64,000 bases of DNA from Clostridia bacterium. Lineage in GTDB: Bacteria; Bacillota; Clostridia; TANB77; CAG-465. The notes beneath the pieces were generated by a model. It ran no database searches, had not been told where the DNA came from, and worked only from the letters and a program-made list of their open reading frames with translations. A program made the position numbers and the translations under genes. The DNA lies in the NCBI GenBank assembly GCA_045611765.1, contig JAZKXT010000004.1, positions 68,883 to 132,882 on the forward strand, given 5' to 3'. Positions 6,542-54,688 of this stretch are shown here, piece by piece; positions within the stretch are counted from its first letter, which is position 1, and each line of letters opens with the position of its first letter.

Positions 6542-6546
6542 TTCCG

Positions 6547-7142: not shown

Positions 7143-7177
7143 CCCTCAACTTTTATTTGAGTTGGGGGTCTTTTTTA
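7143..7177 (+). terminator. rho-independent terminator (CCCTCAACT-ttattt-GAGTTGGGGG + TCTTTTTT)
   Basis: Seen directly. Confidence 0.7.
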
Positions 7178-7187
7178 TGCTAAAATA

Positions 7188-7222
7188 GATAGAAAAAGAA
7201 TCGAGACAAAAAGTTCGATTCT
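7188..7222 (-). terminator. terminator after tRNA-Thr (AGAATCGA-N9-TCGATTCT followed by U-run on the minus strand)
   Basis: Hairpin and A-run on the plus strand (T-run on minus) seen directly. Confidence 0.5.
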
Positions 7223-7231
7223 GACTAAAGT

Positions 7232-7307
7232 TGGAGCTAATAGGCGGAATCGAACCGCCGACCTACAGGTTACGAATCTGTTGCTCTACCTACTGAGCTA
7301 TATTAGC
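7232..7307 (-). tRNA. tRNA-Thr (anticodon CGT)
   Basis: Hand-folded cloverleaf: acceptor GCTAATA/TATTAGC, D-arm GCTC-AGTAGGTA-GAGC, anticodon loop TTCGTAA, T-loop TTCGATT, CCA encoded. One A-C mismatch in the anticodon stem. Confidence 0.7.
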
Positions 7308-7372
7308 GTATTGTGGTTGTTTCAAATGTAGCTATATTATATCATAAAGCTTGTAAATGTAAAGAAAATTGT

Positions 7373-7400
7373 TCAAAAAAATCACTTCTAATGAAGTGAC
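7373..7400 (-). terminator. terminator of the tRNA operon (GTCACTTC-atta-GAAGTGAT + U6)
   Basis: Seen directly, immediately 3' of tRNA-Gly on the minus strand. Confidence 0.55.
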
Positions 7401-7402
7401 GT

Positions 7403-7478
7403 TGGAGCGGGAAACGGGGCCCAAACCCGCGACCTTCGCGTTGGCAACGCGACGCTCTATCAACTGAGCTATTCCCGC
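7403..7478 (-). tRNA. tRNA-Gly (anticodon GCC) with non-canonical D-loop (AGTTGATA, A at position 19) and T-loop (TTTGGGC instead of TTCGAAT)
   Basis: Acceptor GCGGGAA/TTCCCGC, anticodon arm TCGCG-TTGCCAA-CGCGA, discriminator T, CCA encoded. The G19-C56 tertiary pair is replaced by the covarying A19-U56, and A58 is replaced by G. Confidence 0.6.
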
Positions 7479-7497
7479 AAATATCAATTTTTTTGCT

Positions 7498-7573
<76 letters not shown>

Positions 7574-7584
7574 AGATAAAAAAA

Positions 7585-7661
7585 TGGCGACCTGGATGGG
7601 ACTCGAACCCACGACCTCCGCCGTGACAGGGCGGCGTTCTAACCAACTGAACTACCAGGCC
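7585..7661 (-). tRNA. tRNA-Asp (anticodon GTC)
   Basis: GGCCTGGTAGTTCAGTTGGTTAGAAC...CTGTCAC...GGTTCGAGTCC...GCCA. Canonical. Confidence 0.85.
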
Positions 7662-7669
7662 AAAAAAAG

Positions 7670-7745
7670 TGGTGGGCACAATAGGGCTCGAACCTATGAC
7701 CCCCTGCTTGTAAGGCAGATGCTCTCCCAACTGAGCTATGCGCCC
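7670..7745 (-). tRNA. tRNA-Val (anticodon TAC)
   Basis: GGGCGCATAGCTCAGTTGGGAGAGC...CTTACAA...GGTTCGAGCC...CCA. Canonical. Confidence 0.85.
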
Positions 7746-7764
7746 ACTTCTGTTGACGAGTATT

Positions 7765-7793
7765 ATTATACAAAATTATTTTTGCTTTGTCAA
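7765..7793 (-). promoter_or_regulatory. consensus sigma-A promoter (TTGACA-17-TATAAT) driving the Val-Asp-Phe-Gly tRNA operon
   Basis: Reverse complement gives TTGACA, a 17-nt spacer and TATAAT, with the TSS about 12 nt before tRNA-Val. Confidence 0.6.
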
Positions 7794-7867
7794 CACATTT
7801 TTATATATTTTTTTAAAATTTTATCGACTTAGCATTTCAGCTTTCTATATTTAGCTTATAATCATGC

Positions 7868-38925: not shown

Positions 38926-40278
38926 CTATTCTATAACCACTTGTTCAGTTGGTTTTACTATATGCCTAGCTAGGCAAGCTTTAGATATTAATAATGAATT
39001 TGAATTAAATGTCATACCTGTTGGTAAGTCTACATACATCGTAATTTCATTTCCATTATATTTTACTTTTCTTGATTCATCACCGAACAACAAATTATAT
39101 TCAGTATCTGAATTAATAACTTTAAATGTTATTTTTGTTCTAATAATATATTGTTCACCATTACTATACATTATTGGAAGTAACGGCGTTGCCTCACCTT
39201 GTAATGTTATTTTATTATCTTTTACATATTGTACATATTTTTTTACATCATTTGTGTTCATTTTATATGTCATAAGACTTCCTATGCTATATAAAAACTT
39301 TTCATTTGTAATTGTTTTATAATCTACATTTAATATACTTCTAAAATAGTTTACTACCATATCATCAATTTGGCCATATAAATAACCCATTAGTTTATAT
39401 GTATGCTTTGGGGTTTTAAATGAAGGTTCCCATTTCACTTCGTAATCTAACTCATAAATTTCTTTAGGTATGCTCGAAATTATATATGGGTATTCTTTAT
39501 AGTTTTCTGGCATTTGTTTTTTATCTGTAACAATTTCTACTTTTTCGTCGCTATTACCTTTGTTTTTATAATACATCAACGCATTTTCTTCTATTATTTC
39601 AATTAATAGTTTGTTTAATTCACCTTTAACTATTTTAGAATTAGATAATGCTGAATTTTTATTTTGTATAATTCCTAATGTTACTGCTTTTGCTATCGCT
39701 ATTTGCTCAGCTTCTGTATATTGTTTTAACCTTTTCTCACTCATCTTTAATTCTGATGGTTTTACTTCACCCAAAACACCTTCTAAAACATTTGTTGTAA
39801 TCACAACTGCATCTATATATGTTGCTCTCACATCTAGCTCTTTTTCTGTTATACTGTCATTTATACCCGCATATAATGAATAATTGTACCAATTTTGGCT
39901 ATCTGGTTTGCTTTTGTCCGTTAGGTAATATATATTTGAAATATCCTTTATATTGTTTATAGTTCCAACCGTAACTTTGATTAGCTCCGCATTAGAAACT
40001 TTTTGGATGGATGTGGCTTTTTCATTGTTATATAACTTTGCAAAACCATATGTTTCCATTTTATCTGTATATTCCCAATATTTAACGGTTATTATTAATG
40101 CTTTAATTCCAAAATATATTCCAATAGATACTACTATCATTATACCAATTAATACTTTTGTAAATACAGACAGTCTATTAGGCTTTTTATCAGCAGTGTT
40201 TTTAGACTCACTTGTTGCGACCTTCTTAGATGATGTTTTTTTCTTATTCTTTTTCAATTCATTGTTGCTTTTTTCCAT
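38926..40278 (-). CDS. membrane-anchored extracellular protein (450 aa), Lys-rich cytoplasmic N-terminus + single TM
   Basis: KKNKKKTSSKK... followed by a TM helix (VLIGIMIVVSIGIYFGIKALII). Confidence 0.5.
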   Translation of the reverse strand: MEKSNNELKKNKKKTSSKKVATSESKNTADKKPNRLSVFTKVLIGIMIVVSIGIYFGIKALIITVKYWEYTDKMETYGFAKLYNNEKATSIQKVSNAELIKVTVGTINNIKDISNIYYLTDKSKPDSQNWYNYSLYAGINDSITEKELDVRATYIDAVVITTNVLEGVLGEVKPSELKMSEKRLKQYTEAEQIAIAKAVTLGIIQNKNSALSNSKIVKGELNKLLIEIIEENALMYYKNKGNSDEKVEIVTDKKQMPENYKEYPYIISSIPKEIYELDYEVKWEPSFKTPKHTYKLMGYLYGQIDDMVVNYFRSILNVDYKTITNEKFLYSIGSLMTYKMNTNDVKKYVQYVKDNKITLQGEATPLLPIMYSNGEQYIIRTKITFKVINSDTEYNLLFGDESRKVKYNGNEITMYVDLPTGMTFNSNSLLISKACLARHIVKPTEQVVIE

Positions 40279-40292: not shown

Positions 40293-41357
40293 CTATGGTT
40301 TGCATATTGGACATGGATAATACCCTTGCGTTGCCGCTTCAGCTCTATTTATATAAAATGCTGGCACTAATTTTTCTTCTGTATGGTTTTTCCATGATAA
40401 ATAAGCTTTACACTCATTCGACATATGATATAGGTTTCTTGCTAAATAAGATATATCTGTTCCAGATTCAGAAACCACGCCTTTACTTAAATAATATTTG
40501 TTTGCCGATACCAAATCCGATGCACTATATGCTTTATAATTTAAATATCTATTTCCTAAAGATATTCCTTGGATTATTGCTATCATTCCTATTCCGTCCA
40601 TTGTCTCATACCATTCTTCATCAGATGCTACCGAAAACTGAAACGAATACTTTATCCCAGTAAGCCTTGCAAAATCATTATGTTTATTTACAGCATAAGA
40701 TATTTCTTGCATTGCAATTCTTGCTATAGTTGCTGTTCTAATAGATTCTAATTCTTTTATCTTAGCATTATTACCTAATACACCATTCATTTTTGAATCA
40801 GTTAAATAAAAAGATCTCGTATCATATATTTCTCCATTAGATCTATACCTAGTAAGATATATATAATCATCCATTGTAAACGTTACTTCATATGTAAGGC
40901 TACCACTAGTATATGTGTGCATATACTTTACCTTGGGTTTAGTTACAAATATTGTGTTACCAGTAGTTATATCTTTTTCAGCTGAATGTATATATATACC
41001 ATCATAATCTAATACAGCTACAACAGGTATGTACATTTTAAGATGCTCTAACGACATAGTATTATTATTAATATTAAAGCTACTAGAAAGAGAATTAAAG
41101 AATGTATTTACAGCCATATTTGCATTTATACTAACTTTATTATCTACTATTCCCGAATAACCATAATCTATGTTTTCATCTTCATTTTCTACCTGTTTCA
41201 TGGAAGAAACAGCATCCTGAACTGCTGAATTCATCAGATTCTTATAATACATCTCCTGCTTCTCGGATTTTACTAAAAATGATATATTAACATACACTAT
41301 TATAACCACAGGTAAAAATATTGCTACAAATATTAGTGCAAAATCTGTTAATCTCAT
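40293..41357 (-). CDS. N-terminally anchored (pseudopilin-like) extracellular protein (354 aa) ending in Cys-rich YYPCPICKP
   Basis: N-terminal MRLTDFALIFVAIFLPVVIIVYV hydrophobic segment. Confidence 0.5.
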   Translation of the reverse strand: MRLTDFALIFVAIFLPVVIIVYVNISFLVKSEKQEMYYKNLMNSAVQDAVSSMKQVENEDENIDYGYSGIVDNKVSINANMAVNTFFNSLSSSFNINNNTMSLEHLKMYIPVVAVLDYDGIYIHSAEKDITTGNTIFVTKPKVKYMHTYTSGSLTYEVTFTMDDYIYLTRYRSNGEIYDTRSFYLTDSKMNGVLGNNAKIKELESIRTATIARIAMQEISYAVNKHNDFARLTGIKYSFQFSVASDEEWYETMDGIGMIAIIQGISLGNRYLNYKAYSASDLVSANKYYLSKGVVSESGTDISYLARNLYHMSNECKAYLSWKNHTEEKLVPAFYINRAEAATQGYYPCPICKP

Positions 41358-41431: not shown

Positions 41432-44400
41432 TTAATTGACTACAAATGTTCTACTTACTTCTTCTACATTGCCAGCTATATCATATGTTCTTATAGTAGC
41501 TGTCATTGTTCCTTTTTCGGTAATTGTTTTTGTTATACTGCCACCTGCATTACTTATACTTCCAGATATCACATGTGTGCCATCAGATTTAACAAGTTCA
41601 TATGTACATCTATCGAATCCACTTAAATTATCTGAACCTGCTATAAACTCCATTTTCACTTGTCCCGAGTATACATGCGTATACCAATCCATTGTATAAA
41701 TATCATTAAACTTCATGTTCGTACCAGTCGGAGCAGTTTTGTCTAGTTTAATTGTTTTTTCTTCCAATACTGAATTGCCATTTGAATCCTTAGTCGTTAT
41801 TGTGACTTTTGTTCCGCTAGTATTAGAAGTTATTTCATTACGAGACAAAGTAACCATAACCTCTCCACTATTGTCACTTCCACCTGTATACGATAAAGCA
41901 ACATTTTGATTATACCATTTACCCTCCTCGTAAGACTGGCCGTTTACAAGTAATGTTGCAGGCATTGGTGGTAGTTTGTCTATCACTGTCGTACCTATAT
42001 TTCCTGCTTTATCCTCAAGGGCAATTGTTAACTCATATTTGCCATCACTAGGTAACGTTACATCGCTAGACGTTCCACTGCTTATCCCACTACTAGTTTC
42101 TAATTGCCATCTTCTAGCTTTAAAACCAGAACCATACTCTGTATAATCTAAATATCTTTTCTGACCAGCAACTGATGTGACTAAAGCTGGTGGTGTAGTA
42201 TCTACTTTTATAGACCTTGTCTCAGATGTGCTTGACTTTCCAGCTTGTGTATACGTAGTTGCGTATAACGTATATTGTCCATCGGCTAAGTCTTTTTCTT
42301 TAACGAATGTAGTAAACTTTTCACCAACTCCATTTACATATAAATATCCATATGAATACCCTGATGCTGCGCTTCCTGTATCAACAGTTATTTTCACTTT
42401 TGGTTTAGTAATATACCAACCTTCATTGCCTAATCCACCTTCTATTATCTCTAGAGTGGCTGGTTTCGGATTGGATTTATCAAATTTTAGTTCTCTCGTA
42501 CTTTCGCTATAGTTTCCAGCCTTATCATATGTTCTGGCTATAATTTTATACTCTCCGGGCTCCGTTAAAGTTACGGATGTCGGATTAAAGCTATTATAGT
42601 TAACACCTTCATTTTGAACTGGTCCTTCTATTTCATATGTAGTTTTCCAAAATCCACTTGTTGTATCTGAACCATTGGAAATTTTTATAGTAATACTAGG
42701 AGCTATAGCAGTATCATATGCTAAATACCAGCCTGTACTTCCATAATAATAGCCAGATACATTTACAGCAATAGTTGGTGAAGTTGGCGCGTTCTTGTCT
42801 ATTTTTACCTCAAGTGCAACTTTGTCACTTTCATTTCCAACATAATCTTCTGCATAACCTCGCACCGTTCTTGTACCATTCCATGATACAGGATATGTGG
42901 TTACATCATATAAAGAATCGTATAAAGTTAAAGCGTTTTGGATTTGTAAAACGTTACGCCATACACCACTTCCACCTTTATCCGCTGTAGAAGGCGCTAG
43001 ACTTATCGTTACATCAGACCTGTACCACGTTACATCGTCTACTGTGTTGCTAACCCCTTCGGCAACCAAACTAGGTGGAAAAGGCTTTTTATCATCTTCA
43101 AGTACTTTGTACCCATTGCTTTTAGCTCCAGCCAATGCAAGTAATACAGTATCTGAATGTGGATTATTATCTATAATTGTTCCTTCTTCTTCTATGTAGA
43201 TATCATTTAATAATTCGCGTTCTATTTCTTTTTGCGCCCAACCTTCCTCTAATTGAAAGTAATTATTATTGCTAGTTCCAGTGTGTGCGAATTTTACCAA
43301 AACGCGTTCCGCATATTGTGACAGAATATCTACTCTATACTCACCCATATATAACTCTTCATCTGTCCAACTCTCAACAGTCAAATTATTTACATTCTTT
43401 AATGTATCAGAATTCTTTATAGCCTTTTCTATTTTCTCTTTAATAGCTTCTTGATTAGTTGTACCTAGTCTTGGAAAAGATATTATAAAACAAATTTCTT
43501 GGTCTTCAGTCGCTTTTATATAATTATCCACCCAACTGTCATTAACATAAGCTGTATTGTCTACCATTCTAGACTCGGCTAAATTATTAGTTTTTACTAG
43601 CTTCTTCCAATTATATGGCCCTAAAATAGTAGTATGATTTCCCGAATTCTCATCAAATAATTCTATTGCAACCGTTTCTGCCGCAAGAGATGCTATGCCG
43701 TTTTTGTCCTCTCCCAATCCTGGTAATACTGTAACAGTTGCATCTGCAGCTATATAGTCTAAAACTGACATATGCACATTAGTAAGTTTTATTTCTAATT
43801 GATAGTAATCTTCCACGGATATAAAATTCAAAGCAATATTAGCATACATTCCATTTAATTTTATGTAATTACTTATTATATGATTTGCTATATCACTACT
43901 CCATACTAAATCTTTTATAGGAGTATAAACATTTCCTGTATCTATCTTATCAAAATTTCTTAATTCAGCTAGAATTGTTATTTCTGTATTATTTGAATCT
44001 GACAAGTCATATTGATATACATATTGTCTTTCTTCAACTTTTTCACACAATTCTGCAAGTTCCGAATCTATATCTACATCATCACAATTTAACTCGTCAA
44101 CAAAGCTCGATTCTGTTATCACAGATTCTTTTTGTATGTTAGTTTCTCCTTTTTTGTTAACAGGAACTGTTAATATAACTTCCGGAACTATGTCTTGAGA
44201 TGCTTGTATTTTATTATATAATTCCCAGTTTACATTATTAATGGCCCCACCATAGCTTATATTTACTATTTTACTGTTTGACGATTCTGAAAAAGAATCA
44301 CGTAAAATACTCGCTATGGTTTTGTTTGTGTTATATACTTTAACATATATCTCGTCGTTTTTCTTTAATAAATATACTCCGTCTTTTATATTTGTTTCAT

Positions 44401-44776
44401 TTGCACTAATCTTATTAGTTTGCTTATCTTCCCATACATCAAATATGTCTTGAGTATTATATAATATTTTTTGTTCACCGTATGTTTTAACATTGCCATC
44501 GGAATCTCTTTCCTCTGGAACAAGAATACTTCTATATGCCTCTATAGACACATTATATATATTGCCTGTGGACGCTATAGCATTCATATAGTCTGTATAT
44601 GATTGTTCATCTATAAATCCATTGGTCCTAACCTTATCCACAAAATTAGTAGTGGCAGTTAAAACAATGTTATATGCCATGTTATCTTGTCTATCTGCCA
44701 AACTGTATAATGGAAATATAACTACAAAAAATGTTCCTATAATAGTTGCAATTATAATGCTTATAGTATCTTTCAT
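41432..44776 (-). CDS. large pseudopilin-like protein (1114 aa): pilin-type N-terminal helix + six C-terminal about 90-aa beta-sandwich repeats each ending in a D-x-A-G-N motif
   Basis: N-terminus MKDTISIIIATIIGTFFVVIFPLY... is homologous to that of the 405-aa protein. Repeats: EDYVGNESD, YDKAGNYSE, YTQAGKSST, EDKAGNIGT, DSNGNSVLE, YDIAGNVEE. Confidence 0.55.
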   Translation of the reverse strand: MKDTISIIIATIIGTFFVVIFPLYSLADRQDNMAYNIVLTATTNFVDKVRTNGFIDEQSYTDYMNAIASTGNIYNVSIEAYRSILVPEERDSDGNVKTYGEQKILYNTQDIFDVWEDKQTNKISANETNIKDGVYLLKKNDEIYVKVYNTNKTIASILRDSFSESSNSKIVNISYGGAINNVNWELYNKIQASQDIVPEVILTVPVNKKGETNIQKESVITESSFVDELNCDDVDIDSELAELCEKVEERQYVYQYDLSDSNNTEITILAELRNFDKIDTGNVYTPIKDLVWSSDIANHIISNYIKLNGMYANIALNFISVEDYYQLEIKLTNVHMSVLDYIAADATVTVLPGLGEDKNGIASLAAETVAIELFDENSGNHTTILGPYNWKKLVKTNNLAESRMVDNTAYVNDSWVDNYIKATEDQEICFIISFPRLGTTNQEAIKEKIEKAIKNSDTLKNVNNLTVESWTDEELYMGEYRVDILSQYAERVLVKFAHTGTSNNNYFQLEEGWAQKEIERELLNDIYIEEEGTIIDNNPHSDTVLLALAGAKSNGYKVLEDDKKPFPPSLVAEGVSNTVDDVTWYRSDVTISLAPSTADKGGSGVWRNVLQIQNALTLYDSLYDVTTYPVSWNGTRTVRGYAEDYVGNESDKVALEVKIDKNAPTSPTIAVNVSGYYYGSTGWYLAYDTAIAPSITIKISNGSDTTSGFWKTTYEIEGPVQNEGVNYNSFNPTSVTLTEPGEYKIIARTYDKAGNYSESTRELKFDKSNPKPATLEIIEGGLGNEGWYITKPKVKITVDTGSAASGYSYGYLYVNGVGEKFTTFVKEKDLADGQYTLYATTYTQAGKSSTSETRSIKVDTTPPALVTSVAGQKRYLDYTEYGSGFKARRWQLETSSGISSGTSSDVTLPSDGKYELTIALEDKAGNIGTTVIDKLPPMPATLLVNGQSYEEGKWYNQNVALSYTGGSDNSGEVMVTLSRNEITSNTSGTKVTITTKDSNGNSVLEEKTIKLDKTAPTGTNMKFNDIYTMDWYTHVYSGQVKMEFIAGSDNLSGFDRCTYELVKSDGTHVISGSISNAGGSITKTITEKGTMTATIRTYDIAGNVEEVSRTFVVN

Positions 44777-44882
44777 TAATATCTTCTACCTTTCTTATGG
44801 CTCTATATATTCTATAAATATGAATTTCCCGTTATTATACTGCATTTCATATTTCTTACTATTATTTAAGCTCGTCCAGGTG

Positions 44883-45146
44883 TCATGAAGTATTGCACCG
44901 TTGTAAAAAAATATTATCTCCCGACTTGCTTCCATAATGTCTTATCTCTGGCCCTGTATATAATCGTTCATGGTCTTCGCCAATACTTTCTGCAAGTGTA
45001 CCATTCATCCCAACAATATACGGTTCATTCATAATTTCAACCATGTCTAGAATACTGGTCATAAGAGTAACACCTGCACTTAAAGCTATAGCAAATATAA
45101 ATACATAAATTCCTATCATTATTGCTTCACTTGCTGATTGCTCCAT
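44883..45146 (-). CDS. small pilin-like protein (87 aa)
   Basis: MEQSASEAIMIGIYVFIFAIALSAGVTLM: short polar leader then a hydrophobic helix. RBS GAGGGGGAAAG. Confidence 0.45.
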   Translation of the reverse strand: MEQSASEAIMIGIYVFIFAIALSAGVTLMTSILDMVEIMNEPYIVGMNGTLAESIGEDHERLYTGPEIRHYGSKSGDNIFLQRCNTS

Positions 45147-45147
45147 A

Positions 45148-45597
45148 TTATTTTCTTTCCCCCTCTAGCTCATAACGAATTATTATATCGCCGTTATATT
45201 CATATACTTTTACGTCATATTTATTTTCATAACTGAATAATTCTCCTTGAAATTTTTTATTTCCTTCCATTAATTCTTGGAGTTTTTGTGATGGTCTCTG
45301 TCCGTTTGCCTCTGCCACTGATTCAATATTATCTCTTTTAAAATATTCTACCACTATATTTTGATCAGTATATTCGTATTTTTTTACAACATTAAGTAGA
45401 CCGACACCTGTATCTTTTCTCCCATCATACATTGCGTAAATATTATCAAACTGACTATATATATCCGTATCTGTTTCATCAACAAAACCAAATATTTCTT
45501 TCATTTGACTAAACATAGCAAAAAGCGCTGTTGCAATCGACACTGTAATAAACAAACTAACAGCTATAATTACCACTTTAGTTGACAACGCATCCAC
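45148..45597 (-). CDS. pseudopilin-like protein (149 aa), GTG start
   Basis: MDALSTKVVIIAVSLFITVSIATALFAMF N-terminal helix. RBS AGGTGGTG. Confidence 0.45.
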   Translation of the reverse strand: MDALSTKVVIIAVSLFITVSIATALFAMFSQMKEIFGFVDETDTDIYSQFDNIYAMYDGRKDTGVGLLNVVKKYEYTDQNIVVEYFKRDNIESVAEANGQRPSQKLQELMEGNKKFQGELFSYENKYDVKVYEYNGDIIIRYELEGERK

Positions 45598-45621
45598 TTA
45601 ATTCACCACCTATCCTATTAA

Positions 45622-46839
45622 TTAGTATGACCACACTCCAACTATTTGCCTTCTTCCATCAAATTTTTTACTAGCCTCATCCATCTCATCATACTTTCCA
45701 GCGTTATATGTCTGTGTAGTCAAATACCCAAACTTAGGAACACTTTCTAATTTTATACTTTCTTCCACTTTTTTATCATTAATATATAAATTAACTATAC
45801 ATTCTTTATCCTGTACTTTATCTACTGCAATTTCTATTTTAGTATCTGCCATTATATCTGTTGGATAAGATAAAATTGTAGTATTTTCAACAAGAATTGA
45901 AACTCCATTCAAGCCAACACTTACAAGCATGTCACCGGTATTGACAAAGTTGTACATTAATTGTATATCTCCTGTATTTAATACCCCTTTTGCTCTTAAT
46001 TCTGTTACCGTTTTTGGCGTAACTTTCAAAGCAACTTTATAATCATCGGTCGGATTTATAATATTCAAGTTTGAAGTGCTATGTTTCATTGCTTTTAATC
46101 CCACAACACTACTTGTAATGCTACCATAATCTACTTCGCCTATCCATTTACTAGCTAAAATTCTTCCGCCATAATTTACATATAGTCTAGTATTTGTATC
46201 TATAGCGTTTGCTGTTATAGAGTTATATAAAATTGTTGCCAATGTAGTATTAGTATTACGTATAGTTACATTAAAGTTGTCTCCTTCATTTAACAAATAT
46301 GCATAATGTTCTGTTCCATTAGATAGATTTAATTTTTTTTCATTTTCTAAAATATTTACAATATGCTCTGTTGTATATACTTGCTTAGATACCCTATATG
46401 TATCTTCAGACATAAAATCTGTTGGAATTTTCCCAAGTTTACCTGCTAAAAATTTATCCTGTTCATCCTTTTCTAACCCCATTTTATCTTCTGCAGATAA
46501 CCACTCTTCTTTTTGTTCTTGTGTTGTTGTTGCGACTAGTTCATACTTTCCATCCTTTTTTATATAATAATTGGTTATAGGATCATACCTTGTATATTCA
46601 TGTGTAAGTTCTATATCATACGAATTGCCTGTAAGGCGAAGTCTTCTTTCGTAATCACTATACATGTCCCTTGTTATATATCCCTTATTTCTTACTTCAT
46701 CTACAAAATCTTGTGTGTACCTCATAGCAAGTATATATGATATATCGTCTTTCTTTTCATATGCCATATATACAGGGAATATGAAAAGAAGAACTATGGA
46801 TATTATAACAATAACAATTGTTTGTAAACTGTCTTCCAC
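45622..46839 (-). CDS. pseudopilin-like protein (405 aa) sharing an N-terminal module with the 1114-aa protein
   Basis: MEDSLQTIVIVIISIVLLFIFPVYMAYEKKDDISYILAMRYTQDFVDEVRNKGYI matches MKDTISIIIATIIGTFFVVIFPLYSLADRQDNMAYNIVLTATTNFVDKVRTNGFI. Confidence 0.5.
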   Translation of the reverse strand: MEDSLQTIVIVIISIVLLFIFPVYMAYEKKDDISYILAMRYTQDFVDEVRNKGYITRDMYSDYERRLRLTGNSYDIELTHEYTRYDPITNYYIKKDGKYELVATTTQEQKEEWLSAEDKMGLEKDEQDKFLAGKLGKIPTDFMSEDTYRVSKQVYTTEHIVNILENEKKLNLSNGTEHYAYLLNEGDNFNVTIRNTNTTLATILYNSITANAIDTNTRLYVNYGGRILASKWIGEVDYGSITSSVVGLKAMKHSTSNLNIINPTDDYKVALKVTPKTVTELRAKGVLNTGDIQLMYNFVNTGDMLVSVGLNGVSILVENTTILSYPTDIMADTKIEIAVDKVQDKECIVNLYINDKKVEESIKLESVPKFGYLTTQTYNAGKYDEMDEASKKFDGRRQIVGVWSY

Positions 46840-46851
46840 TTGTTATCCCCC

Positions 46852-47259
46852 TTAATAATCAATTATCTTATCTGGAGAAGAAATATACAATATCTCTCCT
46901 TCTTTTGTCACTGTATAGTTCCAAATTGGATTTATTTTATCTAGCATTTCTTCCTTAATATTGCCTGTACTATATCGCCAACTCCCACCTAATGTAGTGC
47001 CATTAAACCTTATTGATACGCTATCATCTGTTATATATTTAGTTATTAACGAACGCACATCTACCCCTGTTAAAGTCGTCGCATCTAAATCTTCCTTTTT
47101 CATTATTTCATCATATTCTGAAGCTATATCTGTCCTATGCCCCACTTGTTCAGCAACATCTATTGCTTTACCATAATATATTGTCATGGCGGATATAACC
47201 CCCATTATTATAAAAACTGAAACACTTATAAAAATAATCCTTACTGACCACTCTTCCAT
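46852..47259 (-). CDS. pseudopilin-like protein (about 135 aa)
   Basis: Start at the second ATG (AAGGGGA RBS). MEEWSVRIIFISVSVFIIMGVISAM N-terminal helix. Confidence 0.45.
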   Translation of the reverse strand: MEEWSVRIIFISVSVFIIMGVISAMTIYYGKAIDVAEQVGHRTDIASEYDEIMKKEDLDATTLTGVDVRSLITKYITDDSVSIRFNGTTLGGSWRYSTGNIKEEMLDKINPIWNYTVTKEGEILYISSPDKIIDY

Positions 47260-47360
47260 AATGTTCCCCTTTCTAATTAACAAATATAAAAAGAATTGAT
47301 TATACCGTGTTTAATTTCTTCTTATATTTATTAATTTCAATATAAATTAACATATCTTAA

Positions 47361-47391
47361 AATAGCCTTAAAAAGGCATACAACATAATTA
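47361..47391 (-). terminator. attenuator-type hairpin (AAAAGGCATA-N11-TATGCCTTTT) immediately 3' of the candidate major subunit gene
   Basis: 10-bp perfect stem seen directly, in the 133-bp gap inside the operon. Confidence 0.45.
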
Positions 47392-47416
47392 TATGCCTTT
47401 TAAGGTTAAAATTTAA

Positions 47417-47863
47417 TTATATAGCTTTTTTGAAATATAAGCCTATAACATTTCCATTCGTATCAAGAATAACAGCAGAAGTATACCTTTCACTCTTAAT
47501 AGCAGCTAGAGCATCGGTTAAATTAGGTGTGGCTGCATTCTTAGTAGAAGAAACAAGACCACCTGCTTTTGGACTACCTGTTACTGTTAGTGCATATTTA
47601 CCATAGTTGGTACTATCTATAAGAATTCCCATGCTTTTTATGTATTTTCTAACAGCTGTTCCTACAGAAGTTGCGCTTAATGTTTTTCCGTCATATACAT
47701 TGTATAATTCGTTTTTTAAATCTCCTGTTATGCCAGAAATTTGTCCACCAGCTTCATCCATCATTCCAGTACCTAAGTTTACTATTAATAGTACTGCAGA
47801 TATGATTATGATTGTAATGAAAAGTCCAACACCAATCATAATCGCTTTTTCTGTATTATCCAT
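47417..47863 (-). CDS. candidate major filament subunit (148 aa) with archaeal/Tad-type class-III-like N-terminus
   Basis: MDNTEKAIMIGVGLFITIIIISAVLLIV. Strongest RBS in the operon (AAAGGAGGT). Preceded by a 110-bp gap and followed by a hairpin, the usual arrangement for a highly expressed major pilin. Confidence 0.45.
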   Translation of the reverse strand: MDNTEKAIMIGVGLFITIIIISAVLLIVNLGTGMMDEAGGQISGITGDLKNELYNVYDGKTLSATSVGTAVRKYIKSMGILIDSTNYGKYALTVTGSPKAGGLVSSTKNAATPNLTDALAAIKSERYTSAVILDTNGNVIGLYFKKAI

Positions 47864-47972: not shown

Positions 47973-50069
47973 TTACATGTTCAATACTGACATTTGTGAT
48001 ACGAGTTGCATTATGCTCACAAGTAGTAATGGACCAACAAAGTATGCCGCTACCAATATTATTAAAGGAGTAAATCCAATTGCATTTCCCATAGTAGATT
48101 TTTTGTTTATTATTCTTTCGTTTGTTTCTTTCCTTTTTTCATATTGGAAACTTCTCTCTGTTTCTAGTTCATCAAAGGCTTCTCTTATTGGTATTCTTTC
48201 TACCGCCGAAATTAACGCTTCTACTATACGCTGGAAGTCTTTTTGTGGAACTGAATCCTTTAAGTCCTCTAAAGCTTCAATTGCACCTGCTTCATAGTTG
48301 TTTAAAGCTGTAGAAATCGGCTCTTTATATGCGTATGAATATCTTTCAAGCCATTCTAATACCGTTTGTACATCAACTCTTTCAATATACATAAGCATTA
48401 GTATTATTGACCTAAACTGCATTATTTCGTCTTCTCTTTCCAAAGCCCTTATTTTATTTTTAATAATTAAAACAATATTTGGTATGAAATATACTCCCCA
48501 TGCAACGAGCAGCGCTATTATCATTTCCCAAAATTTCATGAAATTATCTTTGACGCCTTCTATTTTCCCAAGAACTCTTTCAACATCACTATCCAAAACC
48601 TTTTGTTCCTCTTCAGCTCCCGATGCGCCCATTTGTTTTTCTAGTTCATATCTTACATCTTCTTCTGTAACATTTTTTTCGTTCTTTAGCTTGTCTACAA
48701 TTTCCTTGTCGCTTTTATTTAACGCTTCTGCCGCTTGTCTGTCTTCGTCAGATAGGGCTCCAAGGCTTAAGAATTCTTCGCTAATTTCATTATATATACT
48801 ATTTAAATCTATCGCATGTATATTTATTAACAAAACAAACATGGCTACAAAAGCTATAATCGCATACGTAAACTTATTAATGTAGAACCACTGCAGAGTT
48901 AAATATGAGTTTGTCGACTTAATTCTTTCAGTAAGTCTTTTATGTTTCCTCGTATGCTCGCTTGGCATGAAACCTCTTATTACAAATTTAACAAGTGGAA
49001 ATTTGTAAAGCTTATCTTGCCATTTTTCAGTTACAATTCTATCGAATTTTATTTCGTTAGAATCTTCTCTTATTAGTTTTAAGGCAAAGTATGCTACAAA
49101 TATTGATACCATTATTAGTGTACGGATTACAAATCCAATACTGCTTGAATAGAAATTTATAAGTGCTGGGAAGTTTGTTGATGCCCAGTTTTCTACAATT
49201 TGTAGGAAGAATATTGGTGCTATAGCTATTGCTGTCAAACTTCTAAATTTATAATTTATTTTGTCTTTTTTTAGTAGCTCCAAATATACATCGTTTAGTA
49301 TATTGTTTAAGTTTTTTAAGTATACTGACACTCCCTCTACTTTTCTATCTCCAAGTTCCATTGTAAGATAGGATACACCAGCAAAAAGTTTTAAAAATTT
49401 ATTTGGTGCCGTATCATAATATTTCTCAAGCATTACGTCAGGATTATCTGATGTTATAGCATCTCTAATTCTTCTTATTTGAGGCATTATTTCTTTGTCC
49501 TCAAGCTCTTCTATAGCATCATTAAATGCTTCTTCTATCATACCATGCTCATGGAATGAGTGTCTTATTTCTGTAAAAACTTCCGGTAATTGTGTCATTA
49601 TCTTATCTGCTACTTTATTAACCCTAGAGTTAACCATAACATCATTTATTATGAACACCATAAGTATTACAACAATTGCCGTATATAAATCCGAAACTAC
49701 ATTTAAGAAGACAAACAGCGCTGCAAATATAAATAATAAAGATAGTAACATTATCGAGCCTGTTTTTCTTCTTATTTCATACTCGGTATAATCATTTACC
49801 ATTTCTAGTTTAAGTCTTGTCTTTCTAGTATAGTATTTTATAACTGGTAGTTTTACCAATATTAAATATGCTACTTGAAATACTCTATCCAAAATATCCT
49901 TAATACTTGTTTTATTCTTTACAACTATTTGATCTTTTTGAAATAGCTTTGAATTACTTGCATATTTTTTCTTTGTTACATTATAGTATATTATAACAGC
50001 AAGTAAGCCTAAAAAGGCAATTCCAACCATGCCAATTATAATATACAGAGTTCCATTACCCGCTGCCAT
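47973..50069 (-). CDS. GspF/TadB/TadC-family inner-membrane platform protein, apparently two fused T2SSF-like modules (698 aa)
   Basis: Two repeats of a TM helix, cytoplasmic helical domain, then TM helices. Adjacent to the secretion ATPase. Confidence 0.5.
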   Translation of the reverse strand: MAAGNGTLYIIIGMVGIAFLGLLAVIIYYNVTKKKYASNSKLFQKDQIVVKNKTSIKDILDRVFQVAYLILVKLPVIKYYTRKTRLKLEMVNDYTEYEIRRKTGSIMLLSLLFIFAALFVFLNVVSDLYTAIVVILMVFIINDVMVNSRVNKVADKIMTQLPEVFTEIRHSFHEHGMIEEAFNDAIEELEDKEIMPQIRRIRDAITSDNPDVMLEKYYDTAPNKFLKLFAGVSYLTMELGDRKVEGVSVYLKNLNNILNDVYLELLKKDKINYKFRSLTAIAIAPIFFLQIVENWASTNFPALINFYSSSIGFVIRTLIMVSIFVAYFALKLIREDSNEIKFDRIVTEKWQDKLYKFPLVKFVIRGFMPSEHTRKHKRLTERIKSTNSYLTLQWFYINKFTYAIIAFVAMFVLLINIHAIDLNSIYNEISEEFLSLGALSDEDRQAAEALNKSDKEIVDKLKNEKNVTEEDVRYELEKQMGASGAEEEQKVLDSDVERVLGKIEGVKDNFMKFWEMIIALLVAWGVYFIPNIVLIIKNKIRALEREDEIMQFRSIILMLMYIERVDVQTVLEWLERYSYAYKEPISTALNNYEAGAIEALEDLKDSVPQKDFQRIVEALISAVERIPIREAFDELETERSFQYEKRKETNERIINKKSTMGNAIGFTPLIILVAAYFVGPLLLVSIMQLVSQMSVLNM

Positions 50070-50078: not shown

Positions 50079-51971
50079 TCACCCCCATGCTGTGTCTAAG
50101 AATTTATCAAATGCTTTGATATCTTCATCAGACATGTTTTCACGCATAGCTTGTACATTTGCTTCTGACAGTTGATGTACAAATATATATTCGCCATCTT
50201 TAAATTCTACTATGTTGTGATAATCATAGTTCGAAGTTTGAGTCATATGCCTAAAGTATTCAGTAGCGTTATCCATGAATGCTTCCCATTTGCCTTCCAT
50301 ATTTTTAGCTCTTTTGTATCCATCGTGATAGTTAAACTCTTTCTCTTTTGGAACACACTCTGTTATTCTCTCTATATATCTTGTTCCGTCAACACCTCTT
50401 TTTAGGTGAACGTCAAAGTTTATAACGTTAACAACCTGTACTTCTGCAACATCTTCATTGTTAAACATACCTATTTTTAAAAGTGAGTTTCTTAGTGCAG
50501 TTATAAGGTTAGGGAATGTTTTAGCGTGGTGCGTAAATAATGTGAATTTAGAAGCAACCTGCGCCATTTGTATCATCCATGCAGCAACCGGGTCAGTTGC
50601 AACCTCTCCTAGGATATTAACACCACCATCTGTTTTCTTTTGAACATCTAGACCCATTTGTCCAGTGATTGTGTCTGTCTCTCTTAAAGACAAGATATTG
50701 TTTCTAGGATATATTTTTCTTAAGTGAAGTTCGAATGCTGTTTCCTGAACACGCATCGTTATTGTTGGGTAAAGGTATTTCATTATAGCCATAAGAAGTG
50801 TTGTTTTACCACAACCTTGTTCACCCGTTATTGCTGTAACACGAGCACCTCTAATTAAGTATTTAAGTAACTCTATTACTGGTTCTTTGTTTTTATGTAC
50901 TAATAATTGTTCTGTGTCTATCAAAGTTGGTGGAGCAAACTTTCTTACGAAGAACGCCCACGACTCTGCAAAGTTAGGTCTTAATACAACTATTCTGGAA
51001 CCATCTTTCATTTCGTTGATTTTGAAACCAACTGATTCAGATAATTGTCCTGGATTATTGTATTTGTATATGTTTTGACATACACGTCTAAGCTCTGCTT
51101 CGCTGCCGAATGATAAGAAAGATAAATACATTGATTTACCTTTATAGAAAATCCATACTGAGTCGTATGACATTGGTATATTGAATTTTCCTGTTTGATC
51201 TAGGTAATCCTCCATGTCACCAACTTGGTCTAAGAAGCTAGGTGGTATACCTGAAACTCCTCCTGAAACACCGTCTATATTTTGGTCACGTATATCATCT
51301 ATTACGCTAAATCCTTTATATCCTTGATAAATTCTTTGAACAACTATTTCTAATTTGTCTTCAAAATCTATTGGTGTTCCTTCAACTTCTTCTTCATAAA
51401 TATGATTTATTTCTTCAGCAGTTATTACATATGATGGAACTTTTGCGTCATATTCGAATTTTGGTTCGTCTAGTCTGTATTTGCTTATCATATGGTTTAA
51501 TGCATTAGATTTATATTTTTTCTTATACAAATGAAGTAATATGTCGAATTGGTCTTGCGCTGTCATTTTTTCTTTGCTATCGAAAGGTATTGCGAAATTT
51601 AGGTTTCTATCTGTTACCTTATATTGGTTTTTTAGTAAGTCAAACATTAATGATTTAACATACTTCTTGTCGTTAGCAGATGCATAACCCGCACCTTTTA
51701 AAGCTTTTTTCAAATCGTACTTTGTATTCTTTCTTCTTTCGAATTCATCTTCAGAAAGAGCAAGATCGTATAAGTTCATTCTAGTTATTTCGTCGAATTC
51801 GTGTTTTATAAAATCAGACATTCCTTTTATGCTGTATTTTTGTCTTTCACGTTCAACTTCATCCTCAATTCTTGTGTCTTTTTTAGAGGTTGCTGCATAA
51901 TATATACCTGCAACAACTAGAGCGAACATAACTATTATTAATATTGTGTTAAATATAAATGAAAGTGACAA
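50079..51971 (-). CDS. VirB11/CpaF(TadA)-family secretion ATPase with an N-terminal TM helix and about 250-aa N-terminal extension (630 aa)
   Basis: Walker A GEQGCGKTT in the expected position for the CpaF/VirB11 P-loop; N-terminal MSLSFIFNTILIIVMFALVVAGIYYA. Confidence 0.6.
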   Translation of the reverse strand: MSLSFIFNTILIIVMFALVVAGIYYAATSKKDTRIEDEVERERQKYSIKGMSDFIKHEFDEITRMNLYDLALSEDEFERRKNTKYDLKKALKGAGYASANDKKYVKSLMFDLLKNQYKVTDRNLNFAIPFDSKEKMTAQDQFDILLHLYKKKYKSNALNHMISKYRLDEPKFEYDAKVPSYVITAEEINHIYEEEVEGTPIDFEDKLEIVVQRIYQGYKGFSVIDDIRDQNIDGVSGGVSGIPPSFLDQVGDMEDYLDQTGKFNIPMSYDSVWIFYKGKSMYLSFLSFGSEAELRRVCQNIYKYNNPGQLSESVGFKINEMKDGSRIVVLRPNFAESWAFFVRKFAPPTLIDTEQLLVHKNKEPVIELLKYLIRGARVTAITGEQGCGKTTLLMAIMKYLYPTITMRVQETAFELHLRKIYPRNNILSLRETDTITGQMGLDVQKKTDGGVNILGEVATDPVAAWMIQMAQVASKFTLFTHHAKTFPNLITALRNSLLKIGMFNNEDVAEVQVVNVINFDVHLKRGVDGTRYIERITECVPKEKEFNYHDGYKRAKNMEGKWEAFMDNATEYFRHMTQTSNYDYHNIVEFKDGEYIFVHQLSEANVQAMRENMSDEDIKAFDKFLDTAWG

Positions 51972-52004: not shown

Positions 52005-52811
52005 CTATATTCTTACGCGGTCTAAAACCGCTTTTGTTATATTTCTTATTTCATGAATAAAATATCCATTATAGTCATTTTTTTCAGCATTTAAGTTTTT
52101 ATAAAAGAAATCAATTACATTTCCATCATTACATGCATCTGTAAACACGTAGTTATGTGGTATGCAATGTATTGGCTCTTTTATTCCATACTTTCTGCGA
52201 ATATTTGGGATATTATATTTAGATTTTTCCTCATAATTACACATTAAAAGCATTTTAGGTTTATTCTTTATAATCTCATTTGAAAGATATTTATCCATTG
52301 CTTCCTCTAAAAAGACTTCTTCTTGATTCATAGTACAAATTACATAGTCTGCCTTTTCCAACTCATCTGTTATATATGATTTTTCAGTACCCTTAGGTAA
52401 ATCTAACCAAACCAAATCATATGTTTCATTTGCTTTATTTACAACCATTCCTAAACTGTTGGTAAGTTGGCTAAATTGTTCTCTACTTGCAACATTTGTA
52501 CCATACATTACATCAAGTCTTTGTTTTAAAACTGGTTTTGCATAGTTTCTTATACTTTCAGGAGTAAGTTTATTACTCTCAACAAGTCTTGCTAAAGCTG
52601 TAATACCAATACTTGAACTATTGAACACATTCTGTGCTTTTAAAGAACTGTAATCTGTAAATGAGCTTTCAATTTTTTTAGCTTGCCAATGTGCGTGTAG
52701 AAGTATATTAGAATAATCTTCTTCAATCGCCATCAAAGTACTAACAGCTACACTTGCATGCGTTTGTCCTATAGAAGTAGCTACCGGGCTCCAAAATACT
52801 ATCTTTGGCAT
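52005..52811 (-). CDS. MinD/ParA-fold protein with degenerate P-loop (TadZ/CpaE-like pseudo-ATPase?)
   Basis: KIVFWSPVATSIGQTHASVAVSTLMA aligns to the deviant Walker A xKGGxGKT[T/S], but with GQT replacing GKT. Confidence 0.4.
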   Translation of the reverse strand: MPKIVFWSPVATSIGQTHASVAVSTLMAIEEDYSNILLHAHWQAKKIESSFTDYSSLKAQNVFNSSSIGITALARLVESNKLTPESIRNYAKPVLKQRLDVMYGTNVASREQFSQLTNSLGMVVNKANETYDLVWLDLPKGTEKSYITDELEKADYVICTMNQEEVFLEEAMDKYLSNEIIKNKPKMLLMCNYEEKSKYNIPNIRRKYGIKEPIHCIPHNYVFTDACNDGNVIDFFYKNLNAEKNDYNGYFIHEIRNITKAVLDRVRI

Positions 52812-53536
52812 TACAATTTCCCCCTTGTATACATTTTTATCATTTTTCTAATTTCCCCCGCTTGTACATCACCTAATATTTCTGACGCCATGTCTGTTAT
52901 AAGCGAAATATATTGTTTTGTGTGTCTGTTCATGTCTATATAACCACTTTGCTCAAATTCTATATCAGCAATTTTATCTTGATCTGTATATGCAAATTCA
53001 TATTCTGTCTCATTCCAATCAACAGGAAGACTTAGTATTTTACTTTCAAAATATTTTTCACTAGCTCTTGTTACATATTGTCTAAATAATACACGCGTAA
53101 GAACCGGCTTCCTTTCTACCGCTTCATATTTTAACATAGTGTTTAATAGTTCTTCATTCTTAGCTATAGATATGTTTAGATATTCTATAAAGAAGAATGT
53201 TTTTGCAAAATTCTCTTGTATAAAGTCCTCATATGATTGTACATTGTCTATGTCTATTAATATAATATCATATGTGTCTGCGTTTGATGTTTTTGTACAT
53301 ATGTATTCTTTTATTGCTTCTATACTTCTAAATCCTAGAGCATAATCCACAGAATCAAAATGTACTAAATATTCTTCTTCCGAATTATTGAAGGCTGGTA
53401 TAGAATATCTTAGACGTTCTTCCGATGTTGCATCAATAACTAAAACAGATTTCCCAGTTATAGTTAATACTTTAGCCAAATTAATTATATATTCGGTTTT
53501 ATTTACATATCCTACCAAACCTATTATCTTTTGCAT
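52811..53536 (-). CDS. MinD/ParA-fold (TadZ/CpaE-like) protein with deviant Walker A VGYVNKTEY
   Basis: IIGLVGYVNKTEYIINLAKVLTITGKSVLVID resembles the MinD N-terminus. Overlaps the downstream paralog by 1 nt. Confidence 0.4.
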   Translation of the reverse strand: MQKIIGLVGYVNKTEYIINLAKVLTITGKSVLVIDATSEERLRYSIPAFNNSEEEYLVHFDSVDYALGFRSIEAIKEYICTKTSNADTYDIILIDIDNVQSYEDFIQENFAKTFFFIEYLNISIAKNEELLNTMLKYEAVERKPVLTRVLFRQYVTRASEKYFESKILSLPVDWNETEYEFAYTDQDKIADIEFEQSGYIDMNRHTKQYISLITDMASEILGDVQAGEIRKMIKMYTRGKL

Positions 53537-53550: not shown

Positions 53551-54660
53551 TTAATAATCTAAAGCCTCTCCTCTTAAAGCTTGTTGATTGCTAATTGAAT
53601 CTGTAATTCCAGAAACAACGTTATCATAAGCCTCTTCATTGCTTTGTTCAAATGAAGCTATGCTGCTTTCAATATTACGTCTTGCTTCTGCATTAAGTTT
53701 ACCTTTCGCTTGCTCTACTATATATTGATTTTGTCTCATAAATGCCATTACTTGAGAGTTTGGTTGGTAATTAGCTTTCGTTTTGTTATATGATTCAACA
53801 AAGTATCTATATTCAATAGCATATTGTGTTACTATGTCTAATAAACTTTGTCTAGCAGTAGATACTCCCACAGTTTCTTTTTGGCCATTTGCATCAACAT
53901 TTCCAGTTTCTCTGTTTTCTACCATATAAATGTCATCCATGTCATCAAATTTTGCAAGTTCTTTACCAATTTCATCTCTTAAATATAATTGTGCTTGTCT
54001 CACCGCTTCATCTGTAGTATTTAATTTTATTTGCGTTGTAGGGTCAGTATATTTTACCGCATACAATTTTGTTCCCTCTGTTAAATACGAATCTACTATA
54101 GCACTGTTTAACATTAATGTATCTTCTTCTGACATGTCCATCCAAATTGATGTTCCAGATATTTTCGATACTTGTTTTTGTGTAAGTACAATATAGTCAG
54201 CTCCATTTGGATACATTATTCTTATATCTATAAAATCATTTACAACAAGATCTGTAGGTAATAGCACCGCGTTAATTTCTTGTATTCTCATATCTTGAGA
54301 TACTATCTTATCTCCAACCATACTAGAAACAGCAACCGAATTCCTCACTATGTTATATTTTGCCACTTGACCTACAACAGCTCCCGTTGATAAATACGCA
54401 TTATTTGGAACTGTGTTTTTGTGTATAGTTGTTGTAGTAAGCATATCTGCTGTTATAGTTTCTCCTTGAACAACATCTCTAGTAAAGGTTACTACGTCAG
54501 CTGTATATTTTTCCAAGAAGCTTTTACTTGTTCCTTCTTTATATCCTTTTACAATGTTATTAGATATTAGTATTGTAACAAGAACAAATACCAATCCTAT
54601 TCCAAGTCCTATTAAAATTCCATTAATCAATCTCTTCTTTATTTGATTCATTCCTATCAT
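53551..54660 (-). CDS. CpaB/RcpC-like pilus assembly protein (membrane anchor + SAF-type beta domain), first gene of the operon
   Basis: Start at ATG 54660 (GGAGG RBS 9 nt upstream). TM LINGILIGLGIGLVFVLVTILI, then a periplasmic-type domain. Confidence 0.45.
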   Translation of the reverse strand: MIGMNQIKKRLINGILIGLGIGLVFVLVTILISNNIVKGYKEGTSKSFLEKYTADVVTFTRDVVQGETITADMLTTTTIHKNTVPNNAYLSTGAVVGQVAKYNIVRNSVAVSSMVGDKIVSQDMRIQEINAVLLPTDLVVNDFIDIRIMYPNGADYIVLTQKQVSKISGTSIWMDMSEEDTLMLNSAIVDSYLTEGTKLYAVKYTDPTTQIKLNTTDEAVRQAQLYLRDEIGKELAKFDDMDDIYMVENRETGNVDANGQKETVGVSTARQSLLDIVTQYAIEYRYFVESYNKTKANYQPNSQVMAFMRQNQYIVEQAKGKLNAEARRNIESSIASFEQSNEEAYDNVVSGITDSISNQQALRGEALDY

Positions 54661-54688
54661 ATGTATAAACCTCCATAATACTGTCAAA

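Follow-up and report, generated by a model that had tools for sequence, protein, structure and literature searches.

The window analysed here is a 64,000-nucleotide (nt) stretch of contig JAZKXT010000004.1 (positions 68,883 to 132,882 of the forward strand) from the Clostridia bacterium assembly GCA_045611765.1. It carries a Tad-like pilus operon on its minus strand, in which two adjacent genes, referred to below as orfA and orfB, lie between those for a CpaB-like protein and a CpaF-like motor ATPase. A preliminary description of the sequence had placed the pair at coordinates that matched two minus-strand open reading frames (ORFs) exactly. The features of the pair were as follows:

52811..53536, minus strand: orfA, 241 amino acids (aa), the upstream member, with a predicted single-domain MinD/ParA fold and a degenerate P-loop
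52005..52811, minus strand: orfB, 268 aa, the downstream member, with a predicted single-domain MinD/ParA fold lacking the Walker lysine
53495..53521, minus strand: codons for residues 6-14 of orfA (GLVGYVNKT), the Walker A equivalent, placed by hidden Markov model (HMM) alignment and conservation in 82 loci
52758..52790, minus strand: codons for residues 8-18 of orfB (SPVATSIGQTH), the Walker A equivalent, placed by spacing in the AlphaFold2 model
52809..52826, minus strand: coupling junction of orfA and orfB, read from the sequence, with the Shine-Dalgarno AAGGGGGA and a TAATG stop/start overlap

The two genes were confirmed as adjacent and overlapping: the A of the orfB ATG is the last A of the orfA TAA stop (TAATG), and the orfB Shine-Dalgarno AAGGGGGA is encoded within the final codons of orfA. 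An AGGAGGA motif sits 7 nt 5' of the orfA ATG. The motifs singled out in the preliminary description were also found in the translations (IIGLVGYVNKTEY in orfA and FWSPVATSIGQTHA in orfB). Homologs numbered 81 proteins for orfA and 201 for orfB, nearly all from uncultured 'Clostridia bacterium' genomes, with mean column identities of 57% and 66% in the respective alignments; judged at the sequence level, both are real genes under selection. Counts given below for the near set refer to the window and 81 other loci of its clade, 82 distinct loci in all, collected from 80 species-representative genomes with an orfB homolog and from exact-protein look-ups, with duplicates removed. These near relatives are gut 'Clostridia bacterium' metagenome-assembled genomes, including CAG:465, CAG:921 and CAG:1219. 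Within this set, the genes overlapped by 1 nt in 53 loci and the gap was no more than 4 nt in 74, and an AGGAGG or AGGGGG Shine-Dalgarno inside orfA was kept across related loci.

The basic C-terminal residues of orfA (Arg-Gly or Arg-Arg; 52811-52826, minus strand) are encoded by this same AGGGGG/AGGAGG element. Protein-level conservation of the orfA tail is confounded, because the same nucleotides are constrained as the orfB Shine-Dalgarno. Within orfA, the hydrophobic moment peaks in the last helix (0.83), whose net charge is +3; many relatives have a tail of low hydrophobicity. A C-terminal amphipathic membrane-targeting helix in orfA, of the kind found in TadZ/CpaE, was considered, but the overlap of its Arg codons with the Shine-Dalgarno weakens the case for it.

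AlphaFold2 models of orfA (predicted local distance difference test score of 90.0, predicted template modelling score of 0.90) and orfB (88.7 and 0.89) each consisted of one ParA domain from residue 3 onwards, with no additional domain. Comparison of the orfB model with the Protein Data Bank (PDB) using Foldseek gave MinD as the top match (1ion; E = 3e-10, TM-score 0.65-0.71), with further matches to Borrelia ParA, Chlorobium ParA (3ea0), Soj, FlhG, BcsQ and FleN. The orfA model matched FleN best (E = 9.6e-8), then FlhG, 3ea0, NifH, Soj, BcsQ and MinD, with E-values from 1e-7 to 1e-5. Both models matched solely MinD/ParA-family structures.

Fold comparison was required because sequence searches barely detect the relationship. 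Alignment to family HMMs, which had been proposed as the check that could rule out a P-loop NTPase fold, gave sub-threshold hits of orfA to Pfam AAA_31 (2.8e-4; 21.3 bits against a cut-off of 27) and CbiA (3.5e-3; 17.8 against 25.4) and no Pfam or NCBIfam match for orfB to CbiA, AAA_31 or the ParA clan; it was structure that settled the matter, in favour of such a fold. Searches of PDB sequences, with single sequences and with profiles, returned nothing significant for either protein, the best being MinD 4v02 at E = 0.027 with the orfA profile. A transitive sequence link of the orfB family to the ParA/MinD clan is provided by P0264, a distant family member with GKT, which clears the Pfam CbiA cut-off (27.5 against 25.4 bits). 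In the HMM alignment of orfA with Aquifex MinD, GyvnKt falls over GGVGKT and vLviDgt over VLLIDAA. A Walker B Asp follows a hydrophobic strand in both proteins (D95 of orfA and D137 of orfB, each in 82/82 loci), aligned with the MinD segment YDYILVDSPAG, and the Walker B regions are colinear (YDIILIDID in orfA and YDLVWLDLPKG in orfB; compare DSPAG in MinD). The C-terminal IPxNxxFxDAxNxG of orfB also resembles IPxDxxVxxAxxxG of MinD. On the predicted structures, both orfA and orfB are MinD/ParA (P-loop NTPase) folds.

The preliminary description had called the two proteins MinD/ParA-fold paralogs. The shared fold held, but paralogy was undetectable: BLASTP of orfA against orfB was not significant (E = 0.099), hhalign of the two family profiles gave a probability of 1.9% (2.8% with a widened 87-sequence orfB profile), and within the window neither family HMM matched the partner protein at E ≤ 1. 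Against the canonical ParA domain of an additional protein in one distant locus (L087, described below), the two families gave weak hhalign probabilities of 35% and 3%. Any duplication that gave rise to the pair is too old to see in the sequences, and the two are not demonstrable paralogs. The possibility that orfA is the receiver domain of TadZ split into its own gene was rejected, as orfA aligns over ~255 columns to full ParA-like chains.

The nucleotide site was read using MinD numbering as a guide (signature lysine K11; G15-K16-T17; D38/D40; Walker B Asp). The deviant Walker A xKGGxxGK[ST] with both lysines was absent from orfA and orfB clade-wide. The orfA loop reads G9-Y-V-N-K13-T, with no signature lysine, GG changed to GY and GK to NK. 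Across the near set, its signature-lysine position is hydrophobic, G9 is invariant (82/82), the second Gly of KGG is Tyr in 72 of the 82 loci, and position 12, which in a canonical loop is the Gly preceding the Lys, is Asp in 52, Asn in 22 and Glu in 8, and never Gly. K13 is invariant both here (82/82) and in distant relatives (66/66), together with D35 and D95. Position 14, that of the Mg-ligand Ser/Thr, is Tyr in 45 loci, Thr in 18 and Ser in 9 (Ser/Thr in 27/82), and residue 37, at the position of the water-activating Asp40 of MinD, is Thr in 81 of 82. In distant orfA proteins, the residue before the Lys was Asp in 58 of 64 scorable sequences and Asp, Asn or Glu in all but four (Lys in three, Gly in one); the single sequence with Gly, from locus L088, reads GASGVGKT.

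The orfB loop is A-T-S-I-G15-Q16-T17, with neither a signature nor a Walker lysine. In the model, a strand at residues 3-7, a loop at 8-15 and a helix from residue 16 reproduce the spacing of beta1, P-loop and alpha1 in MinD. Position 16 in the near set is Asn (28), Gln (21), Cys (17), Ser (8), Thr (5), Ala (1) or Asp (1), with Lys in none of the 81 near relatives, so the replacement of GKT by GQT noted in the preliminary description was borne out. T17 is kept in 78 of 82 loci, signature positions 11 and 12 are variable with no conserved lysine, the switch-I Asp positions hold His, Gln or Asn, and D137-x-P-K is invariant. A relocated compensating lysine, K46, was considered and rejected: invariant in the alignment of 48 close homologs, it is missing from the consensus of the 87-sequence alignment of the wider family. 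In the distant subfamily, position 16 is Gln in 43, Lys in 28 and another residue in 4 of 75 pairs, and many distant members read GKExTGKT, a recognisable deviant Walker A with a signature-type lysine.

These patterns suggest that orfA has been degenerate for a long time, more anciently than orfB, and that orfB descends from a competent ParA-type protein in which the Walker lysine was lost repeatedly, and completely in the window's clade. Because both P-loops are degenerate, loss of hydrolysis is predicted for both proteins: in this lineage orfA, too, is probably non-hydrolysing, and not the GQT protein alone. The asymmetry implied by the preliminary description, in which a dead orfB would sit beside a presumably competent orfA with VGYVNKT, is not borne out by the sequences, given the degenerate loop of orfA.

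An orfA-profile match lay immediately upstream of orfB in 82/82 near loci. Distant loci (L084-L090 and 80 further metagenome loci from the subfamily alignment) gave the same picture, with an orfA-like ORF directly upstream of orfB in 83/83 of those with enough upstream DNA, which brings the pairing to 165/165 informative loci; no orfA-orfB fusion was seen. An exhaustive profile search placed 1098 clusters (50% identity) in the orfB family at E ≤ 1e-3 and 658 at E ≤ 1e-10, nearly all ~265-295 aa long. The distant block consists of a CpaB-like gene, an orfA-like gene (~220-242 aa), an orfB-like gene, an ATPase (~615-625 aa) and a platform protein (~665-670 aa). One carrier is cultured and has a complete genome, namely Clostridiaceae bacterium M8S5 (L086; CP118523.1, 936841-957656), in which the module lies immediately downstream of a canonical Tad locus (T2SSF, Flp/Flp1_like, TadE and two Peptidase_A24 genes). 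This strain could serve as an experimental system.

Some of these distant genomes hold other ParA-like genes. Strain M8S5 has, besides the pair, a 214-aa protein whose degenerate loop is ParA-like (IGIVGVSKNVGVTHT). In L087, a gene (6551-7816, plus strand) for an extra 421-aa ParA-like protein lies just upstream of the CpaB-like/orfA/orfB block; this protein has a canonical YGAKGGIGKT and an N-terminal extension of ~170 aa, a TadZ-like feature. A Peptidase_A24 fragment and genes for three DNA methyltransferases on the L087 contig suggest a mobile element.

In the window, the pair is embedded in the following block, all on the minus strand:

53551..54687, minus strand: CpaB/RcpC-like SAF-domain protein, 378 aa, with an N-terminal transmembrane helix; first gene of the machinery block
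50079..51971, minus strand: TadA/CpaF-like motor ATPase, 630 aa; N-terminal transmembrane helix present, Walker A intact (GEQGCGKTT)
47973..50069, minus strand: polytopic membrane protein, putative fused TadC-TadB platform, 698 aa, matching a published cluster protein (931 of PMC11680825) in position and size
41432..47863, minus strand: run of pilin-/pseudopilin-like genes (148, 143, 405, 149, 87 and 1114 aa) with N-terminal hydrophobic helices, the counterpart of published proteins 932-938 (PMC11680825)
54812-56176, minus strand: PBP5-type D-Ala-D-Ala carboxypeptidase (Peptidase_S11 at 1.4e-68, and PBP5_C), directly upstream of the CpaB-like gene

The CpaB-like protein matched Pfam SAF above its cut-off (1.5e-7, 32.3 bits) and TIGR03177 pilus_cpaB below it (2.9e-7), and its gene was found upstream in 82/82 loci. 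On the other side, 33 nt separate the end of orfB from the CpaF-like gene, whose family profile matched PDB CpaF 8rkd at E = 3.2e-9 over residues 276-549; its G383-T391 are invariant. The ATPase gene was present in 78/82 loci and the platform gene, which has no Pfam match in the window, in 77/82, with the shortfalls partly due to contig ends. Pilin-like genes were kept downstream in 47-71 of the 82 loci. This conserved order of CpaB-like gene, orfA, orfB, ATPase and platform upholds the earlier assignment to a Tad/Cpa-like locus: orfA and orfB occupy the TadZ/CpaE slot of a Tad-like pilus operon.

A similar cluster has been published as the conserved pilus cluster of TANB77 (PMC11680825, Nat Commun 2024), comprising a CpaB-like protein (927, 358 aa), two COG1192 proteins designated 'TadZ' (928, 231 aa) and 'CpaE' (929, 280 aa), a TadA/CpaF with one transmembrane helix (930, 640 aa), a fusion, recognised by structure, of TadC (first half) and TadB (second half) with eight transmembrane helices (931, 693 aa) and pilin-like proteins (932-938), all listed in its Table 1. 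Gene order is the same in the window, and sizes of 358/231/280/640/693 aa compare with 378/241/268/630/698 aa; both share an ATPase with one transmembrane helix, a fused TadC-TadB and an origin in uncultured gut Clostridia. Because architecture and habitat agree, orfA and orfB are most probably orthologs of 928 and 929. The tandem ParA-like pair had accordingly already been noticed and labelled in that study, where 'TadZ' and 'CpaE' were assigned from Foldseek matches and the word 'Walker' occurs 0 times, although the two are names of one canonical component (PMC11407121). Pseudo-ATPase status, pairing statistics and a heterodimer, which are considered here, do not feature in it, and the cluster was described there as exclusive to TANB77 at ≥ 50% similarity, in contrast to the 1098 clusters found here, a cultured Clostridiaceae isolate among them. 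Literature searches brought up no relevant account of two TadZ proteins or of ParA-like pseudo-ATPases forming heterodimers. New in the present analysis is that both P-loops are degenerate, each in its own pattern throughout the clade; that the pairing is absolute, with translational coupling, over 165 loci; that a receiver domain is missing; that the wider orfB family is polymorphic for Lys and Gln; and that the module reaches far beyond TANB77, into a cultured strain.

Compared with characterised TadZ/CpaE proteins, the pair is alike in being encoded beside the TadA/CpaF ATPase gene of a tad/cpa-type locus. However, TadZ/CpaE proteins (such as E. rectale TadZ, PDB 3fkq, with 354 residues, of which 207 aligned in the structure comparison, and Caulobacter crescentus CpaE) have an N-terminal receiver (ARD/REC) domain, which both orfA and orfB lack. 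In Caulobacter, six CpaE dimers have been modelled in situ as a ring around the CpaF hexamer, with the REC domains linking neighbouring dimers and a C-terminal amphipathic helix at the membrane (PMC13170226). TadZ has an atypical Walker A, binds ATP and shows low ATPase activity (PMC6668835), the loop still supporting dimerisation (PMC6668835 and PMC13170226). The motifs of orfA and orfB depart from the canonical Walker A, each in its own way, and either protein may or may not bind ATP. With MinD, FlhG (FleN), BcsQ and Soj, the pair has in common the overall fold and the Walker B-type Asp, but not the KGGxxGK[ST] and signature lysine of those proteins, and of the switch-I Asp pair of the MinD family orfB has neither and orfA the first only. 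On the modelled fold, then, the pair belongs to the ParA/MinD superfamily, though not by its defining deviant Walker A, and it is TadZ/CpaE-like in position and probably in role, with strict membership failing on the ARD domain and the Walker motif.

We propose, with moderate confidence, that orfA and orfB are two distinct MinD/ParA-fold proteins that jointly fill the TadZ/CpaE role as a scaffold, likely in the form of an A:B heterodimer. Translational coupling would supply the two in fixed proportion, and a strict tandem order in which stop and start overlap is in keeping with a stoichiometric complex. The pair would act as a cytoplasmic scaffold or adaptor beside the membrane-anchored CpaF-like motor and the fused TadC-TadB platform, which it may surround or dock. 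Its most likely form would be a heterodimer at the usual ParA dimer face, in place of the TadZ homodimer. As neither protein is expected to hydrolyse ATP in the window's lineage, assembly would be constitutive or partner-controlled, with no ATP hydrolysis cycle. The heterodimer is plausible. Known heterodimeric or pseudo-dimeric SIMIBI NTPases include Nbp35-Cfd1, SRP54-FtsY and the A1/A2 halves of ArsA, all of which retain functional nucleotide sites. A more far-reaching version, which we advance tentatively and regard as possible rather than probable, would make the pair an obligate heterodimer of two ParA/MinD pseudo-ATPases forming a nucleotide-independent ring or adaptor around the membrane-anchored CpaF-like motor and defining a large, so far unrecognised class of Clostridial Tad-like type IV filament machines; A:B pairs would replace the ARD-mediated ring of TadZ homodimers, and the repeated loss of the orfB lysine would record a ParA-type switch becoming a static scaffold.

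Several observations weigh against the proposed scaffold. The invariant G9, K13, D35 and D95 of orfA, together with T37 (81/82), look like a constrained ligand site. Asn and Asp, moreover, accommodate a backbone conformation like that of Gly better than other residues do, and for these reasons orfA may still bind nucleotide in a non-canonical way. The full GKxxxGKT in 28 of 75 distant-subfamily orfB proteins implies that ATP was used ancestrally, and such use may survive in one form or another. In some relatives (L087, with KGGIGKT, and L086) an additional ParA-like gene lies nearby, and the pair may therefore not be the whole equivalent of TadZ. Finally, the mirror-tree partial correlation between orfA and orfB was 0.32, as against 0.39 and 0.45 for each with the platform and ~0 with the ATPase; these values are compatible with a heterodimer and do not discriminate.

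The invariant K13, D35 and D95 of orfA speak for the arrangement first suggested for the pair, an asymmetric heterodimer in which orfA is a working ATPase and orfB (GQT) its non-hydrolysing partner; of the two composite sites, one would be active and the other dead, as in heterodimers of the ABC or SIMIBI type. One-good/one-bad combinations do exist in distant loci, since the canonical GASGVGKT of the L088 orfA stands beside a lysine-less orfB and L089 shows the reverse, an orfB with GKT and a degenerate orfA, and a live/dead-site model suits such lineages better than the window. In the near set, however, orfA has Asp, Asn or Glu in place of the Gly before the Lys in every locus and Tyr for the second Gly in most, lacks the Ser/Thr Mg ligand in 55/82, has Thr at the catalytic Asp and has no signature lysine, and orfB, variable at positions 11 and 12, has no conserved lysine to donate in trans, which makes this arrangement improbable here. 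Somewhat more weight, though still short of being likely, can be given to two independent ParA-like proteins with separate jobs, each a monomer or homodimer and neighbours only through operon membership (for example, one on the CpaB-like/platform side and the other on the motor, or one a regulator). Their sequence relationship is undetectable, they evolve at different rates (mean distances of 0.95 and 0.78), their residual covariation with the platform is at least as strong as that with each other, and canonical ParA/MinD proteins, TadZ included, are homodimers (PMC13170226). Yet they co-occur in immediate adjacency across very divergent lineages without exception, an overlap of stop and start such as theirs typifies genes whose products form a single complex, and both lack the lysines that drive nucleotide-sandwich homodimerisation. 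It is very improbable that the pair has nothing to do with the pilus and is a DNA-partition or FleN-like transcription-antiactivator module lodged in the operon: FleN is the best structural match of orfA and some homologs are named 'MinD-like ATPase involved in chromosome partitioning or flagellar assembly' by the Joint Genome Institute, but the pair is always flanked by the CpaB-like gene and the CpaF-like gene, nothing resembling ParB or a centromere partner lies nearby, and the deviant Walker A needed for ATP-dependent DNA binding of the ParA type is absent.

Of the core components of Tad pili, TadZ/CpaE is the one least understood. Should the proposed scaffold of orfA and orfB prove correct, two receiver-less, catalytically decayed ParA-like proteins would reveal which features of TadZ are dispensable (ATP cycle, ARD domain, homodimer symmetry), and the natural Lys-to-Gln series in the orfB family would offer a test of whether nucleotide binding matters at all. 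There is applied interest as well, as a pilin from the TANB77 cluster is reported to enhance checkpoint immunotherapy, and knowledge of the machinery is needed for expressing these pili or for studying them in M8S5.

A number of minor observations concern the remaining components of the operon. The CpaF-like ATPase has a conserved N-terminal region of ~270 aa with no Pfam match, its alignment to CpaF being limited to residues 276-549. A membrane-anchored TadA is unusual and may lessen the need for a membrane-tethering TadZ. The platform gene is split into 235 and 417 aa in one relative (L001). In archaea, a single platform protein holds both domains in the same order, TadC then TadB (PMC6668835), and the fused Clostridial platform may retain or re-create an archaeal-like state. 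The pilin-like proteins open with a short polar leader followed by a hydrophobic helix (e.g. MDNTEKAIMIGVGLF and MEQSASEAIMIGIYVF) and lack the usual Gly(-1)/Glu(+5) prepilin signature; the run ends with the 1114-aa protein, which carries Big_13 and Big_3_2 Ig-like domains. In the 64-kb window, phmmer with two Peptidase_A24 query sequences found no prepilin peptidase, which is a weak negative.

Outside the published 12-gene cluster, a homolog of the PBP5-like gene was found upstream of the block in 59 of ~79 related loci with enough sequence, at a median start of 3.3 kb before orfB; its product might serve to remodel the peptidoglycan around a pilus in a monoderm cell, or the association may be no more than synteny. 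Further upstream of the cluster region are a radical SAM/SPASM enzyme (59429-60505, minus strand) and a tyrosine recombinase of XerC/D-like architecture (62445-63323, minus strand; Phage_integrase, 1e-45), with no evidence of linkage of either to the pilus cluster. Downstream of the pilin block, three minus-strand ORFs (32923-38916, 1997 aa; 38926-40278, 450 aa; 40293-41357, 354 aa) had no Pfam match at E ≤ 1e-3. Within flanks of ≤ 10 kb, the 1997-aa and 450-aa proteins had no homologs in related loci; homologs of the 354-aa protein were found in 28 related loci and in strain M8S5. Lastly, just upstream of the very distant module copy in L088, positions 379-7146 (plus strand) encode a 2255-aa protein with Rpb2 (beta) and Rpb1 (beta-prime) domains, which may be the product of a fused rpoBC gene.

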